Of a stretch of 64,000 bases of DNA, positions 6,631 to 14,501 are shown in pieces. The notes beneath the pieces were generated by a model that was given only the letters and a program-made list of their open reading frames with translations, was not told where the DNA came from and did not search any database. Within the stretch, counting starts at the first letter, position 1, and each line of letters opens with the position of its first letter. The DNA is from Candidatus Zixiibacteriota bacterium (lineage in GTDB: Bacteria > RBG-13-66-14 > B26-G2 > WVWN01). The translations under genes and the position numbers were made by a program. The stretch is from positions 124,949-188,948 of the forward strand of contig JASFLY010000003.1 of NCBI GenBank assembly GCA_050117845.1, in the 5' to 3' direction.

Positions 6631-7002
6631 ATGGCCAAATCCCGTTCTGAAACGCTAAGGAGCATCCTGAAAGACTTGGAGGCCGCGACACCCGATATCG
6701 AGGGGAGTTGCGTTGTGTCCTCCGACGGCCTGGTAATGGCCAGCGCCCTGCCGGCCGATGTCGACGAGGACCGGGTAGCCGCGATGGCGGCCGCCTTGTT
6801 GGCCCTCGGCGACCGAAGCGCGACGGAGTTGGACCGCGGCGAGTTGAGCGAGGTTTTCGTCAAAGGTGAACACGGTTATATCGTATTGATGGGCGCGGGG
6901 CGGGAAGCCGTACTGGGAGCGCTTTGTCGGGAAGACGCGAAACTGGGCATGATATTCCTCGATATGCGTCGCGCCTCCAAAGAAATCGGCGACCTGGTTT
7001 AA
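6631..7002 (+). CDS. Roadblock/LC7 domain protein (paralog A)
   Basis: AGGAGG RBS; 123 aa; near-identical to paralog at 8805-9176; pattern GSCVVSSDGLVMAS...GYIVLMGAGREAVLGALC fits Roadblock/LC7 (MglB/CvnB-like). Confidence 0.75.
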   Translation: MAKSRSETLRSILKDLEAATPDIEGSCVVSSDGLVMASALPADVDEDRVAAMAAALLALGDRSATELDRGELSEVFVKGEHGYIVLMGAGREAVLGALCREDAKLGMIFLDMRRASKEIGDLV

Positions 7003-7077
7003 CCAGCGCTCGTACGATAATCAACGCCGAGACCTTACGTTACGGCAACCAGGCATTATACGAGAAAGGAGAACAAA

Positions 7078-7563
7078 TTGGACGCACGAGGATATAATTC
7101 ACTACTTAACGTGACGATGTACGGTTTTGGGGCGGCCCTCAACAACCTGGTCGACCTCAACATGGTTCGTCTCGTCATCCGCCAGTTCGGAGACGCCCTG
7201 GTGGATTCCGAATTCGGCCCTAAATTCCTGAAAGGCATCGGATTCGAAGAACCAAAGGGTGACGACGTGCCTTCGCTGACTAAAGCGTACGCCGAGGAAA
7301 TGAAGAAATCCGGCATTACCCAGGTGTTCGACGTAGTCGAGGCCACGGACGAGAAACTCGTCCTGGATATCGGCATGTGCGTTTTCGCCTCCGCCACCGC
7401 GGCATTCAGGGCCGAAGGTATCGAAATTCCGCCCTGCCCCATCGTCGGGATCGTCCTGGCCGGCCTGAACAAACGGCTTAAGGTCAACGGCAAGGTAGCT
7501 TCGGCCGAATATAAATCGCAAGCCAATACGACGCTCTTCACTATCGACCTTTACGGCCGGTAA
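7078..7563 (+). CDS. hypothetical protein
   Basis: GAAAGGAG RBS 6 nt before TTG start; 161 aa; no confident domain; conserved Cys pair (MCVFASATAAF...PPCP). Confidence 0.5.
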   Translation: MDARGYNSLLNVTMYGFGAALNNLVDLNMVRLVIRQFGDALVDSEFGPKFLKGIGFEEPKGDDVPSLTKAYAEEMKKSGITQVFDVVEATDEKLVLDIGMCVFASATAAFRAEGIEIPPCPIVGIVLAGLNKRLKVNGKVASAEYKSQANTTLFTIDLYGR

Positions 7564-7700
7564 ACACCGCCTCCCGGGCGGAAGGCCGATTCGTGGACGA
7601 TGGGTTAGAAACTCGTCCGCCGACAAGGCCGAGGCGCAGTTACGGCGAAACCCGTAATCCGGGCGTCCTACGCCTCGGGAAGAAAGGAGTGCGGCGCCTA

Positions 7701-7835
7701 ATGGCGAATGAGAAATCCGATTGTAAATGGGCCCAGGGCGACCCCGACCCGACGGGCCTCTTCTGGTGCGATAAAATGGCGTGCATGGTCAACGGTAAAG
7801 AGAAACCGACCTGCACCCATTACGAGAAGGACTAA
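7701..7835 (+). CDS. small Cys-rich peptide, tandem copy 1 (44 aa)
   Basis: AAAGGAG RBS; MANEKSDCKWAQGDPDPTGLFWCDKMACMVNGKEKPTCTHYEKD; shares DCKW...WCDK...C.HY motif with the two following small ORFs. Confidence 0.45.
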   Translation: MANEKSDCKWAQGDPDPTGLFWCDKMACMVNGKEKPTCTHYEKD

Positions 7836-7910
7836 CGTCTAATTAAGGTTCCTAAGGCAATTAACCAATCCCAATCAACCGCGAAGCCCCCAGATTACGA
7901 GGAGTGAAGC

Positions 7911-8045
7911 ATGGCAAATTCGAAATCAGATTGCAAGTGGGCGCAGGGCGACCCGGATCCTACCGGCCTATTCTGGTGCGATAAACTGGGCCGTATGGTC
8001 AACGGCGAAGAAAAGCCGGTCTGCGAACACTACAGTTCCGAATAA
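7911..8045 (+). CDS. small Cys-rich peptide, tandem copy 2 (44 aa)
   Basis: GAGGAG RBS; MANSKSDCKWAQGDPDPTGLFWCDKLGRMVNGEEKPVCEHYSSE; below the ORF-track size cutoff, read directly from the sequence. Confidence 0.45.
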   Translation: MANSKSDCKWAQGDPDPTGLFWCDKLGRMVNGEEKPVCEHYSSE

Positions 8046-8101
8046 CGCAATCTAACACCCCTCTCGTCAGGGCAAGCTTCAAGGGCAAAGGACGTGGGAC
8101 G

Positions 8102-8227
8102 ATGAGTAAGGGAGACTGTAAGTACGCTGGCGAACCTAATGAATTGGGTCATACATGGTGCGACAAAATGGAGCGCTATGTACCCCCAAAGGACGAAGAA
8201 AACTGTGAGTTGTATGAACCCAAGTAA
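8102..8227 (+). CDS. small Cys-rich peptide, tandem copy 3 (41 aa)
   Basis: MSKGDCKYAGEPNELGHTWCDKMERYVPPKDEENCELYEPK; same CK(W/Y)A...WCDK...C.(H/L)Y motif, more diverged. Confidence 0.4.
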   Translation: MSKGDCKYAGEPNELGHTWCDKMERYVPPKDEENCELYEPK

Positions 8228-12266: not shown

Positions 12267-12462
12267 CAAGTGCGAACTACTCGATACGTGTCCGTTCTTC
12301 CATCGTTGGAAGGGCAACACCGAGGAAGAAATACAAGGGTGGATTTCGGAATATTGCAACGACCTGGCGACGTCGGAGAAGTGCGCCCGTAAAATCGTAC
12401 GGGGGTCCACCGGCAAGGCGCCGGCTGATAATTTCTCCCCCACCGGAGAACTGCTCGACTAA
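12259..12462 (+). CDS. small Cys-rich protein (67 aa)
   Basis: AGGAGG RBS 9 nt upstream; start overlaps the desulfurase stop by 8 nt; four Cys (C5, C11, C33, C42). Confidence 0.45.
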   Translation: MSDKCELLDTCPFFHRWKGNTEEEIQGWISEYCNDLATSEKCARKIVRGSTGKAPADNFSPTGELLD

Positions 12463-12510
12463 GAGAAGAGGAGCCTACCAACGCGCCCTCGGGCGTACCG
12501 GGTTCATTCC

Positions 12511-12831
12511 GTGAAGACTACGGCGATATACGAAGGGGAAGCCATAAACGTTTACGCGGTCGACCTTTGCCACTACGGCGACCGGGGCGATTACGAGGTT
12601 TTCCCCGACAGAGAACTCCGGTTGGACGTGACCCGGTACGCCGACGACCTCGCGGCCGCCGGCTACCGGGTCGAATACGTCGACGCCGAGGTCTCTATTT
12701 TCCGCGACAACGCGGACACCGAATTCACCATGTACCCGGACGGCCGCTTGATACTGGAGAACCTAAGGCCCGGCTCGATAGAACAGGCCTTCGACGTCGC
12801 GGCCTTGATTATGGGCTTCGAACGAAAATAA
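12511..12831 (+). CDS. hypothetical acidic protein
   Basis: GTG start, 106 aa, no strong RBS or recognisable motif. Confidence 0.35.
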   Translation: MKTTAIYEGEAINVYAVDLCHYGDRGDYEVFPDRELRLDVTRYADDLAAAGYRVEYVDAEVSIFRDNADTEFTMYPDGRLILENLRPGSIEQAFDVAALIMGFERK

Positions 12832-12995
12832 AACCAAGTCGGAAGAATTAAACGCTTAATGAGAACGCAGAAACCAATTTGCCCCTTCCCCCTAAATGTC
12901 GGCGGCGCCGAAACCCGCGGAAGCAATAATCAAGGCGCCGCCGGCGACCTTAAACGCCGGGGGGCCGGCTTTACTGGACGCGACGAACTAAATTG

Positions 12996-13004
12996 TGCTA
13001 TAAT
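12996..13004 (+). promoter_or_regulatory. extended -10 promoter element candidate (TGcTATAAT)
   Basis: Exact TGnTATAAT match in an AT-rich spacer ~105 nt upstream of the DUF4388-like/GTPase gene pair; no good -35. Confidence 0.3.
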
Positions 13005-13109
13005 ATGGGCTAATAACCCCTTTCAACAGTTTACCCTGTGGAAATCACCCCCAACGGTATAACGGCATAAAAAGGAGGGGATCCGGGCCACCCCCGTGCC
13101 CCCAGGTTT

Positions 13110-13940
13110 TTGACGCTCAAAGGAAACATAGCTGATTTCGACCTAGCGGATATCATCCAACTGATAGGCCGGAGCAAGAAGACCGGCAAGTTGGTCGTCT
13201 CCGGCGGCCATAATTTCGTCACGATATACTTCAAGGAAGGCCGGGCGGTTTTCGCCAGCCCGGCTCACCAACGTGACTACCTCGGCAACATTCTTATACG
13301 CCGGGGCATCGTAACGCGCGAAGACGTGGACGAAGCCCTCATGGTCCAACGGAAACTCCGCAAGAACGGCCAAAATATCCGCATCGGTTCGGTCCTCGCC
13401 GCCAAAGGTAAAGTATCGCGGAAGACGCTGGAAAATTTCATCCGCATCCAGATAGAGGAAACCGTGATGGCGGCCCTAAGCGAGACTACCGGCAACTTCG
13501 AATTCCTTCCGGAACTCGACCTCGACGACGGAGATATACTGGTGTCCGTTGACGCTGAATGGGTAATACTCGAGACCTCGCGGCAAATCGACGAATGGGG
13601 CCTGGTCGGCAAAAAAGCCCCCGCTCGCGACGCCGTTTTCATTATCAATCCCGATCCGGAAACGGCCACGACGATGAGCCTGGAACTCGACGATTGGCGA
13701 GTCGTGAGCCTCGTGAACGGCGTCCGTACGGTTGAGGAAGTCGTGAACCGGGCAGGGATGTCCCGCCTCGTAGCGATCCAAACCCTCGCCCGACTCATCG
13801 AGCTAAACGTCGTCGTGGAGAGCCGCGCCGGGACCGAGAAGAATAACAAATGGACCTTCGTAACGGAAACCTACCAACAACAGCCCGCGCCCGAAAAAAG
13901 CATCCTGGGTCGAATCATCGACCGTATCCGCGGCATTTAG
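13110..13940 (+). CDS. DUF4388-like domain protein
   Basis: N-terminal LKGNIADFDLADIIQLIGRSKKTGKLVV resembles the DUF4388 signature; TTG is the only in-frame start; 16 nt before the GTPase gene. Confidence 0.55.
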   Translation: MTLKGNIADFDLADIIQLIGRSKKTGKLVVSGGHNFVTIYFKEGRAVFASPAHQRDYLGNILIRRGIVTREDVDEALMVQRKLRKNGQNIRIGSVLAAKGKVSRKTLENFIRIQIEETVMAALSETTGNFEFLPELDLDDGDILVSVDAEWVILETSRQIDEWGLVGKKAPARDAVFIINPDPETATTMSLELDDWRVVSLVNGVRTVEEVVNRAGMSRLVAIQTLARLIELNVVVESRAGTEKNNKWTFVTETYQQQPAPEKSILGRIIDRIRGI

Positions 13941-13955
13941 TTTAGCGGTAACCCC

Positions 13956-14501
13956 ATGACGAAAACGGCCGTTAAGATCCTTATTACCGGCGACGTCGGC
14001 GCCGGAAAAACAGAATTTATACGTACCATCAGTGAAATCGATATCGTGTCGACGGATCGACGCACTTCCGACGAATACCGGGAACTCAAAGACGAGACTA
14101 CGGTCGCGATGGACTTCGGCCGCCTTACCGTCGATGAGGAGCTGGTCCTCCACTTATTCGGAACGCCGGGCCAGGTCCGCTTCGATTTCATGTGGGAGAT
14201 CCTGTCGATGGGGATGTTGGGCTATATCATCCTCTTCGATTCCTCCCGACCCGACACGTCGCCGAGCACCAGGCGCATCATAGACTTCTTCGAAGAATTG
14301 GGTAACGTCCCCTTCGTCATCGCCGCCAATAAACAGGACCTCGAGGGCGCGCTCTCCCCGGAGGATGTATCGTACATCCTGGCCCTCGACGGGAAACGTC
14401 CCATACCGGTATTGCCCTGTCGGGCCAACGACCGCGGCGACGTTAAACGTGTACTGTTACAGCTGTTCCACGAAATAGCGGCCGGCGTTCCGCCGGATTA
14501 A
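13956..14501 (+). CDS. Ras-like small GTPase (MglA/CvnD-like)
   Basis: Walker A GDVGAGKT, switch-II LFGTPGQ (DxxG), NKxD as AANKQD; 181 aa. Confidence 0.8.
   Translation: MTKTAVKILITGDVGAGKTEFIRTISEIDIVSTDRRTSDEYRELKDETTVAMDFGRLTVDEELVLHLFGTPGQVRFDFMWEILSMGMLGYIILFDSSRPDTSPSTRRIIDFFEELGNVPFVIAANKQDLEGALSPEDVSYILALDGKRPIPVLPCRANDRGDVKRVLLQLFHEIAAGVPPD

Follow-up and report, generated by a model that had tools for sequence, protein, structure and literature searches.

What kind of system is formed by a small GTPase that is encoded among Roadblock/LC7, V4R and PATAN (DUF4388) proteins? The question is raised by positions 6631-14501 of a 64-kb stretch of DNA from a Candidatus Zixiibacteriota bacterium (the window, whose coordinates are used for all gene positions; related contigs and loci are cited by L numbers). 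An earlier note had described this segment as two Roadblock paralogues, two clear V4R proteins, a DUF4388-like protein and a Ras-like GTPase lying within 8 kb on one strand, and had likened it to an MglAB or conservon-type switch. All of these genes are located on the + strand, in a run of genes that spans about 3.8-14.6 kb, and hidden Markov model (HMM) scans supported all four domain assignments (Robl_LC7, V4R, DUF4388 and small GTPase). Missing from that inventory were a cysteine desulfurase, the conserved protein Y106, three mini-proteins, the V4R folds predicted for X161 and X162, a third Roadblock-like gene and an insert within the PATAN protein. With slightly more confidence than doubt, we read the locus as an MglA-family bacterial G-protein switch in three layers: a PATAN-GTPase core, cassette A and cassette B. 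On this reading, the switch would be responsive to cyclic di-GMP (c-di-GMP) and to ligands.

The genes of the three layers are as follows (aa, amino acids; ORF, open reading frame).

6631..7002, + strand: RoblA, Roadblock/LC7 protein, 123 aa, first gene of cassette A (Robl_LC7 E 2.7e-19)
7078..7563, + strand: X161, orphan protein of predicted V4R/Bet3 fold, 161 aa
7701..7835, + strand: mini-protein 1, three-cysteine, 44 aa (ORF with Shine-Dalgarno sequence; family recovered by profile search)
7911..8045, + strand: mini-protein 2, three-cysteine, 44 aa, 77% identical to mini-protein 1
8102..8227, + strand: mini-protein 3, three-cysteine, 41 aa, 85% identical to the L082 orthologue
8805..9176, + strand: RoblB, Roadblock/LC7 protein, 123 aa, first gene of cassette B (Robl_LC7 E 1.2e-20)
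9301..9789, + strand: X162, orphan protein of predicted V4R fold, 162 aa (AlphaFold and Foldseek)
9808..10386, + strand: V4R192, canonical V4R-domain protein, 192 aa (V4R 40.7 bits, cut-off 31)
10388..10999, + strand: V4R203, canonical V4R-domain protein, 203 aa (V4R 33.4 bits; MobR/MsvR-type V4R matches)
11001..12266, + strand: SufS/CsdA-type (class II) cysteine desulfurase (Aminotran_5 E 4.9e-109; called from 11043 in L001)
12511..12831, + strand: Y106, conserved protein, 106 aa, with a conserved VDLCHYGDRGDYEVFPDREL block
13110..13940, + strand: PATAN (DUF4388) protein, 276 aa, with an MshEN-like insert and a C-terminal MarR-like winged helix
13956..14501, + strand: MglA-family small GTPase, 181 aa (Pfam and NCBIfam)

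The PATAN-GTPase core

The core is defined by the adjacency of the PATAN and GTPase genes. In a survey of 80 genome loci with GTPases 55-62% identical, nearly all from Chloroflexota, 77 have the GTPase gene immediately preceded by a PATAN gene on its own strand, and the other three loci are cut by contig ends. The pair is also present in all Zixibacteria-like and Coatesbacteria loci compared. An association of such GTPases with Roadblock and PATAN proteins was known in outline (Makarova 2006, as cited in PMC4316618; Wuichet 2014), with PATAN neighbours of MglA groups 1 and 5 described as "occasional" (PMC4316618); in contrast, the pairing is near-obligatory in the GTPase subfamily considered here, and the PATAN-GTPase pair is its conserved core.

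The GTPase is Ras-like, as had been proposed. Its best Pfam match is ATP_bind_1 of the GPN-loop family (E 1.1e-15), with further matches to Arf and Ras; it scores above the cut-off of the NCBIfam small_GTP model TIGR00231, and its best match among PDB sequences is MglA of T. thermophilus (E 6.4e-7). The nucleotide-binding motifs are GDVGAGKT in G1 (residues 12-19), TT in G2 (48-49), GTPGQ in G3 (69-73) and NKQD in G4 (125-128), so that the GDVGAGKT and NKxD motifs first read from the sequence stand, whereas the DxxG read with them is actually GTPGQ. The MglA family comprises single-domain Ras-superfamily proteins of at most 240 aa with a P-loop and with threonine in place of the G3 aspartate, followed by GQ, and was split into five groups by Wuichet and Sogaard-Andersen in 2014 (PMC4316618). 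Group 1 (MglA, SofG) has an arginine finger and TVPGQ, and groups 2-5 have Thr-Thr and GTPGQ; a DAR G5 and an altered G4, which is NxFD in group 2, mark groups 2 (CvnD, MfpB) and 3, whereas groups 1, 4 and 5 retain [NT]KxD, group 5 being taxonomically broad (PMC4316618). With 181 aa, a P-loop and GTPGQ, the window GTPase falls within this family. The E-R-T segment that holds the arginine finger of T. thermophilus MglA aligns with E-T-T in the window protein (HMMER alignment). Its combination of TT, GTPGQ and NKQD, together with the adjoining PATAN gene, fits groups 4/5 by the published motifs, a placement on motifs rather than in a tree. MglA proper is ruled out by the threonine in the place of the arginine finger and by GTPGQ instead of TVPGQ in G3, and a conservon GTPase of the CvnD type by the canonical NKQD, where group 2 has NxFD.

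The two Roadblock proteins confirm the earlier assignment, scoring 69.1 (RoblA) and 73.5 bits (RoblB) against the Pfam Robl_LC7 cut-off of 23. They are 88% identical, suggesting that the two cassettes were brought together by a recent duplication. Both contain the pair Asp32-Gly33, and such an Asp-Gly pair is typical of MglB proteins coupled to MglA groups 2-5 (PMC4316618); by sequence, they are Roadblock proteins of the MglB/CvnB type. Their matches are to archaeal Roadblock structures and to CvnB5: RoblA found the PDB sequences 7f8m (E 1.4e-29), the Asgard Roadblock 7yh1 (E 8e-12) and CvnB5 (3leq; E 6e-10), and no MglB was among its matches at E <= 0.01.

These features bear on a simple explanation, namely that the locus is an orthodox MglA/MglB polarity module for gliding or type IV pili, or a conservon transplanted into Zixibacteria. 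As in the MglA/MglB systems of M. xanthus and T. thermophilus (group 1), a single-domain Ras-superfamily GTPase with threonine for aspartate in G3 has Roadblock partners, and T. thermophilus MglA is its best solved-structure match. As in the conservons (CvnA-D; MfpB-E), a GTPase is accompanied by a Roadblock protein of the GAP (GTPase-activating protein) type, a partner with a helix-turn-helix (HTH) fold and a sensor, with the TT/GTPGQ signature shared by groups 2-5, and the match of RoblA to CvnB5 points the same way. In addition, PilB, the pilus ATPase, is a binding partner of cyanobacterial PATAN regulators (PMC9090330), so that by analogy a pilus or polarity output is possible.

The differences, however, extend to both halves of this explanation. 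In comparison with MglA/MglB, the window has TT rather than RT, GTPGQ rather than TVPGQ, Roadblock proteins of 123 aa that retrieve no MglB structure and an obligatorily adjoining PATAN gene; no RomR or RomX was seen, and no pilus or gliding genes are present in segment 2700-23000. In comparison with the conservons, the G4 motif is NKQD and the host belongs to another phylum, not being an actinobacterium. Domain scans of the proteins encoded in 3004-17489 found neither HisKA nor HATPase_c nor DUF742, which bears out the reported absence of a CvnA-like kinase. Because the operon lacks both a histidine kinase and a DUF742 protein, conservon membership is rejected, though the logic may be similar: the PATAN/MshEN-like/winged-helix protein stands in the place of CvnC, and a soluble HTH-PAS-GAF protein at most in the place of CvnA. 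Taken together, we regard an orthodox MglA/MglB module or a displaced conservon as highly improbable. What remains of the likeness first drawn is a Ras-superfamily GTPase with Roadblock partners, in a locus that is neither a strict MglAB system nor a conservon.

The PATAN protein has an architecture of its own. Pfam DUF4388 (PF14332) matches residues 4-163 with 97.1 bits, upholding the earlier assignment, and covers 121 profile positions, the match being interrupted by an alpha-helical insertion (approximately residues 52-115). A DUF4388/PATAN domain with a helical insertion is shared with PatA, PixG and PixE; unlike them, the window protein lacks a receiver domain, and its MshEN/GSPII-like insert is followed by a MarR-like winged helix. 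The insert holds two tandem 24-residue motifs, YLGNILIRRGIVTREDVDEALMVQ and RIGSVLAAKGKVSRKTLENFIRIQ, at residues 57-80 and 91-114 (window 13278-13451). They resemble the tandem motifs xLGxxLLxxGxVxxxxLxxxLxxQ of the MshEN/GSPII-B domains in MshE, PilB and PilF, with the difference that the module resides inside a PATAN domain and not N-terminal to a secretion ATPase. A family profile built from 38 of the GTPase-adjoining PATAN proteins was searched against PDB sequences. Its residues 52-112 match the MshEN/GSPII domains of PilF (E 3.7e-14), PilB (E 1e-8) and MshE (E 1.6e-6), and residues 174-270 match winged helices of the MarR family (E 3.3e-5); weak Pfam MarR_2 matches occur in 20 of the 38 relatives. 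Based on these similarities, binding of c-di-GMP by the window PATAN protein is plausible.

Roadblock and V4R-fold genes in two cassettes

V4R192 and V4R203 both exceed the Pfam PF02830 gathering score of 31 and are the two V4R proteins recognized before. Two further members of the fold are predicted. X161 and X162 match no Pfam or NCBIfam model and have no sequence relationship to each other that is detectable by BLAST. Searches of 5.8 billion protein clusters yielded 12 relatives for X161 and nine for X162, and AlphaFold models computed from those alignments (pLDDT 78 and 73, respectively) each place N-terminal helices, two of them, ahead of a beta-beta-alpha-alpha-beta-beta core, the arrangement of the V4R/Bet3/H-NOX fold. 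In Foldseek searches, the best matches of X162 are the V4R sensor domains of PoxR, MopR and DmpR and a Thorarchaeota TRAPPC3 (probability 1.0); X161 matches YslB, TRAPPC3/Bet3 and H-NOX (probability 1.0, TM-scores 0.5-0.6). When X162 was compared with Chloroflexota V4R proteins by hhalign, the probability was 1%. Since profile-level similarity to V4R is lacking, the assignment of X161 and X162 is made at the level of the fold, and on these models the region holds four V4R-fold proteins rather than two.

The cysteine patterns of the two proteins differ. X162 has the invariant residues Cys98, Cys104, Cys124, Cys155 and His81, four cysteines and one histidine as in zinc-binding V4R domains, in which a four-cysteine pattern is typical of a structural zinc site. 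In X161, whose start is likely at 7117 (giving 148 aa), the invariant residues are Cys101, Arg111 and a Pro-Pro-Cys120 motif; with only two cysteines retained, the C-terminal cysteine pair of classical V4R domains is absent. Likeness to the V4R sensors (PoxR, MopR and DmpR; MsvR) is seen at the Pfam level in V4R192 and V4R203 and, for X162, in a model that matches PoxR and MopR best. Unlike those sensors, the V4R proteins of the window are stand-alone, without AAA+ or DNA-binding outputs, and X161 is always followed by a three-cysteine mini-protein.

The three mini-proteins are paralogues of one another, with a Shine-Dalgarno sequence for each ORF. Common to all three is the motif D-C-K-[YW]-A...G..W-C-[DE]-K...V...C..Y-E, with invariant Cys8, Cys23 and Cys38. 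Mini-protein 3 and its L082 orthologue differ by 19 synonymous and 3 non-synonymous codons, which indicates that these are real genes under purifying selection. Among 1.84 billion representative proteins, a profile search recovered 20 relatives, mostly of 39-57 aa, five of which are C-terminal domains of GNAT (and HEAT) proteins; the mini-proteins have no match in Pfam, NCBIfam or PDB sequences. X161, X162 and the three-cysteine mini-protein are therefore three families without a Pfam or NCBIfam model in the libraries searched. The motif was seen as the C-terminal domain of GNAT acetyltransferases on low-GC archaeal contigs (P0146, P0148-P0150, P0153), and in L099 a HEAT-GNAT-mini-protein fusion (5001-6428) lies directly after a GTPase-Roadblock pair.

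Cassette A consists of a Roadblock gene, X161 and one to three mini-protein genes. In L082, it leads directly into the PATAN-GTPase pair. A second, paralogous system is apparently carried by the same metagenome-assembled genome (MAG), as judged by the shared locus-tag prefix PVH29_: on the 29,877-bp contig L092, the order is Roadblock, X161 (82% identity), three mini-proteins, Roadblock, a GTPase of 184 aa and a fused FHA/PATAN protein, and the protein encoded in front of this series has MJ0207 as its precomputed Pfam family. Among 14 distinct X161 loci, including Heimdallarchaeota and other low-GC archaeal contigs, the mini-protein gene directly follows X161 in all 14, a Roadblock gene lies within 1 kb of X161 in 13 (the exception is L088) and an MglA-like GTPase lies within 5 kb in seven, several of the remaining contigs being short. 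In all five loci that came from a metagenome scan with an X161 alignment, the mini-protein gene comes directly after X161 and Roadblock genes lie on the flanks.

The archaeal loci extend this arrangement to the second prokaryotic domain. Around the mini-protein homologue P0144 (L093-L095), genes for a 178-aa protein, a 41-aa mini-protein, a Roadblock protein (122 aa) and a GTPase (214 aa; G2 STTVGFD, G3 GGPGQ, G4 NKQD) are followed by two further Roadblock genes (157 and 171 aa) and preceded by a PAS/GAF histidine kinase. With both cysteines conserved, the first of these, of 178 aa, is homologous to X161 (HMM E 2e-10; hhalign probability 92%, E 5e-7). Sequences identical to the Roadblock and GTPase proteins of these loci, as well as the neighbouring wyosine-type radical-SAM gene, bear the NCBI name Candidatus Heimdallarchaeota. 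Proteins identical to those of this cluster are also filed under a "Spirochaetes bacterium" MAG (MCK4798781.1/MCK4798782.1) on two contigs of about 2 kb, which is most likely a binning error. L097 has the same gene order as L093-L095; L096 carries X161-like and mini-protein genes among three Roadblock genes; and L099 (26% GC, with a TFIIB neighbour) carries an X161-like gene (HMM E 3e-32), a mini-protein, two Roadblock genes and a divergent GTPase-Roadblock pair. X161, mini-protein and Roadblock make up a trio, in many cases joined by a GTPase, that Zixibacteria and Heimdallarchaeota share.

In Chloroflexota, a V4R gene often travels with the core. An HMM iterated from V4R192 and V4R203 found 43 ORFs in the surveyed loci, every one downstream of the GTPase gene, on its strand and no more than 1.5 kb away; Pfam confirms a V4R domain in 36 of them, and contig ends truncate two of the others. 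Among the 66 loci with at least 2.5 kb of sequence downstream, 39 have a V4R gene within that distance and nine an adjacent Roadblock gene, although the genomes are related, so that shared ancestry inflates the count and the 39 are not independent events. The typical order is PATAN, GTPase, optionally Roadblock, an alpha/beta hydrolase, V4R and a hexapeptide transferase. The conservation claimed earlier for Roadblock/V4R/GTPase neighbourhoods is borne out by these loci and by the Heimdallarchaeota, where X161-type V4R-fold genes adjoin Roadblock and GTPase genes.

Cassette B comprises RoblB, X162, two V4R genes, the desulfurase, Y106, PATAN and GTPase. The identical eight-gene order recurs in L090/L091, on one strand and with gaps of at most 175 nucleotides (nt); because the same gene order is repeated in other contigs, the grouping is not a chance juxtaposition of genes in the window. 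X162 and Y106 are confined to a narrow clade. Y106 has no match in Pfam, NCBIfam or PDB, and an orthologue 58% identical occupies the same position in L091. In the desulfurase, the motif of the lysine that binds pyridoxal phosphate is SGHK (216-219) and that of the catalytic cysteine is GHHCA (357-361), both as in class II enzymes of the SufS/CsdA type; with 365.8 bits, under the cut-off of 475.1 of the sufS model TIGR01979, it does not qualify as SufS proper.

A complete desulfurase active site inside the operon, together with the invariant cysteines of X161, X162 and the mini-proteins, raises the possibility that there is no signalling switch at all, and that the GTPase and Roadblock proteins act as a nucleoside triphosphate-dependent insertase or chaperone that matures cysteine-rich V4R-fold proteins and mini-proteins with desulfurase sulfur. 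The GPN-loop family ATP_bind_1 being the best Pfam match of the GTPase would agree with such a cluster- or metal-site assembly machine. What weakens it is that most related loci, among them every archaeal locus and every locus with cassette A only, have no desulfurase. Furthermore, the GTPase has the switch motifs of the MglA family and MglA as its best PDB match, and none of SufE, SufU, CsdE, SufBCD or IscU was found among the scanned proteins of 6631-14501, which leaves no scaffold of the SufBCD, IscU, SufE or SufU kind there. We consider the assembly role quite improbable.

Candidate mechanism and the points against it

How would a G-protein switch built from these parts operate? The GTPase would serve as the nucleotide switch, with Roadblock dimers acting as its GAP or as a platform, as MglB and MfpD do. 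In a conservon, the HTH-fold DUF742 protein MfpC is the guanine nucleotide exchange factor (GEF) and the Roadblock protein MfpD is the GAP (PMC11343762); in parallel with MfpC, the PATAN/MshEN-like/winged-helix protein may integrate c-di-GMP and function as exchange factor or effector. The V4R-fold proteins are the likely ligand-binding inputs, the candidate ligand being small and hydrophobic, a metal or sulfur-derived. The repeated occurrence of V4R-fold genes together with Roadblock genes suggests that the two kinds of protein combine into assemblies that act on the GTPase; V4R-fold proteins and Roadblock dimers would form a platform that sets its nucleotide state, much as is done by Bet3-fold and longin subunits in TRAPP and by Roadblock subunits in Ragulator. 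With the C-terminal cysteine pair missing from X161 and a three-cysteine mini-protein always encoded next, it is an attractive idea that the metal site of X161 is completed in trans by the mini-protein cysteines. In the clade with cassette B, the desulfurase might supply persulfide sulfur and, with Y106, may supply or sense it. The interactions, ligands and output named here are what we infer from domain and fold identities, motif states and a gene order conserved across Zixibacteria, Chloroflexota and Heimdallarchaeota.

The transcription signals of the window concern the unity of the system. The following elements were located.

8252..8304, + strand: strong hairpin followed by a U-rich tract (RNA fold -35.8 kcal/mol, z -3.2), likely the terminator of cassette A
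8481..8510, + strand: sigma-70-like promoter for cassette B (TTGACT-18-TATAAT, extended TG, 11/12)
12975..13004, + strand: possible internal sigma-70-like promoter before PATAN-GTPase (TGGACG-18-TATAAT with TG, 10/12)
14583..14606, + strand: bidirectional intrinsic terminator closing the operon (10-bp stem, 7 G-C pairs, T-run)

The promoter of cassette B is situated in an ORF-free, AT-rich spacer (8305-8804; the gap is about 570 bp with the hairpin included) and leaves a leader of about 295 nt ahead of RoblB. The spacer resembles the corresponding stretch of L090/L091 only in patches. An Rfam search of 6000-15000 (E <= 1) gave a weak terminator-like match only and no riboswitch in the leader. 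A search for sigma-54 promoters, made because a sigma-54 activator is encoded nearby, gave no convincing site upstream of either Roadblock gene, and the upstream regions aligned across loci showed no clearly conserved operator.

Several observations weigh against a single c-di-GMP- and ligand-responsive switch, and some of them speak for a juxtaposition: a PATAN-GTPase-Roadblock switch next to a separate sulfur, metal or cofactor system made of V4R, the SufS-type desulfurase and Y106 and of X161 with the mini-proteins. Given the hairpin after cassette A and the separate promoter-like sites, cassette A, cassette B and the PATAN-GTPase pair may be transcribed as three units in the window. L088 has X161 and a mini-protein alone, with no Roadblock or GTPase gene nearby. 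Most Chloroflexota loci lack a desulfurase and many lack V4R; in 22 of the 66, neither V4R nor Roadblock lies beside the pair. In Chloroflexota, the V4R gene is also interspersed with an alpha/beta hydrolase gene and with genes of the sugar-nucleotide type. The synteny in Chloroflexota could also have been inherited rather than selected. The desulfurase and Y106 are tied to the module only in a narrow clade (nine protein clusters), and the V4R status of X161 and X162 depends on models of moderate confidence from shallow alignments. In contrast, V4R-fold genes stand beside Roadblock and GTPase genes in Zixibacteria, Chloroflexota and Heimdallarchaeota, in varied orders and with GTPases only 26% identical; each cassette has its own Roadblock gene; and L091 keeps all eight genes of cassette B on one strand at the close spacing given above. 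On balance, the juxtaposition is possible but rather doubtful.

The remaining objections concern the PATAN protein in the switch reading. The reference MshEN domain has two 24-residue motifs, RLGxxLLxxGLLxxxxLxxxLxxQ, with a short spacer, and the corresponding NCBIfam model NF053729 has a cut-off of 38 bits. The window protein reaches 35.2 bits and thus falls below it; tyrosine replaces the first arginine of the motif, and the spacer has 10 residues instead of 5. No similarity to DUF742 was detected in the C-terminus, and none of the 38 PATAN relatives has a DUF742 match. In favour of the module, on the other hand, the window score is just under the cut-off, as are those of close orthologues (35.5-36.2 bits in Zixibacteria-like proteins and 37.7 in one from Coatesbacteria), and a second Coatesbacteria PATAN protein (38.0) and two from Chloroflexia (40.0 and 41.2) reach or exceed it. 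Two Anaerolineae PATAN partners scanned with NCBIfam (L042, L011) have no match to the c-di-GMP motif, and most Anaerolineae partners have none to a strict MshEN regular expression either, which makes it unlikely that every member of the family binds c-di-GMP. Downstream of the pair in the Chloroflexota locus L042, a gene for a REC-GGDEF regulator (14363-15268), a putative diguanylate cyclase with a receiver (REC) domain, ends the string PATAN-GTPase-hydrolase-V4R; L042 has this gene, yet the Anaerolineae PATAN partners tested are without a recognizable MshEN-type motif.

In eukaryotes, small GTPases together with Bet3-fold subunits and with regulators of the Roadblock or longin type have a central part in membrane traffic (TRAPP) and in nutrient signalling (Ragulator). 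A bolder form of the switch reading would make V4R/Bet3-fold proteins and Roadblock dimers a ligand-gated GEF/GAP platform, the prokaryotic counterpart and possibly a relative of TRAPP/Ragulator, with the mini-protein completing an X161-type metal site and PATAN adding c-di-GMP control in bacteria; in this extended form we think it unlikely. The similarity to the TRAPP core (Bet3/Trs31/Trs33 with longin subunits, a Rab GEF) and to Ragulator (Roadblock subunits, a platform for Rag) is at the fold level only, with 8-13% identity. The partners here are Roadblock and not longin proteins, the GTPase is MglA-like and not Rab or Rag, and the parallel is known from fold and gene adjacency. In Asgard archaea, matching GTPases to regulators has been considered hard, as the genes are generally not in operons; this holds for the small GTPase genes of Lokiarchaeon MK-D1 with respect to Roadblock, longin and TRAPPC3 genes (Tran et al. 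2024, PMC10933270). A different Asgard operon, with LAMTOR1-like, Rab-like and DENN proteins, was described by Liu et al.

Literature searches found no paper on a DUF4388-GTPase-V4R operon, of which an earlier mention in Koonin & Aravind 2000 or Makarova et al. 2006 is possible. In the same searches, the near-obligatory PATAN-GTPase pair, the MshEN-like/winged-helix PATAN architecture, the V4R and V4R-fold genes of these operons and the X161, X162 and mini-protein families appeared to be undescribed, though older work may mention them. More generally, the clusters set V4R/Bet3-fold, Roadblock and MglA-like GTPase genes side by side in both prokaryotic domains and in this way name sets of proteins for direct interaction tests. 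The little-studied MglA group 5 systems gain a near-obligatory partner that resembles a c-di-GMP receptor and has a winged helix, which would tie second-messenger signalling to bacterial G-proteins. The recurrence of part of the combination in Chloroflexota and Asgard archaea provides a testable prokaryotic counterpart of eukaryotic GTPase-regulator complexes.

Flanking genes

Upstream and downstream of the core and cassettes, and in one of the gaps between their genes, further features were found.

3004..3543, - strand: third, divergent Roadblock-like paralogue, 179-aa ORF (Robl_LC7 22.6 bits, cut-off 23)
3873..6236, + strand: sensor/regulator with HTH_17, four PAS and GAF domains, 787 aa (Pfam)
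12259-12462: possible 67-aa ORF between the desulfurase and Y106, called in the public annotation of the same sequence (L001)
14775-15680, - strand: bacterial gasdermin-like gene right after the terminator of the GTPase gene (PADLOC bGSDM E 2.8e-13)
15762-17489, - strand: defence-type reverse transcriptase beside the gasdermin (PADLOC RT_UG21 E 5.8e-23)
17979-22958, - strand: 1659-aa protein with Ser/Thr kinase, AAA16/TPR, GAF and sigma-54 activator domains

The true start of the third Roadblock-like protein is likely at 3390, which would give 128 aa as in its orthologues. L084/L085 (48% identity) and L086 have these orthologues at the corresponding divergent site, and Roadblock HMM matches occupy the equivalent position in L090/L091. 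The HTH_17-PAS-GAF protein is a conserved neighbour of the module: relatives flank it in L082, L084 and L086 with PAS/GAF domains only. Pfam shows no kinase or cyclase output domain in the window protein, and larger relatives in sister contigs are likewise without kinase domains. The 67-aa ORF probably does not represent a gene; L091, with a gap of just 51 nt at this place, contains nothing that corresponds to it.

A defence role of the module was considered and dropped, a PADLOC scan having matched none of its proteins to a defence model. Beyond the terminator, the gasdermin-like gene also matches NCBIfam prok_gasdermin (E 1.4e-9, below cut-off), and its position beside a reverse transcriptase of the UG/DRT type instead of a protease looks like an unusual pairing. 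The protein with kinase and sigma-54 activator domains is a conserved neighbour as well, one of the same architecture flanking cassette B in L090.

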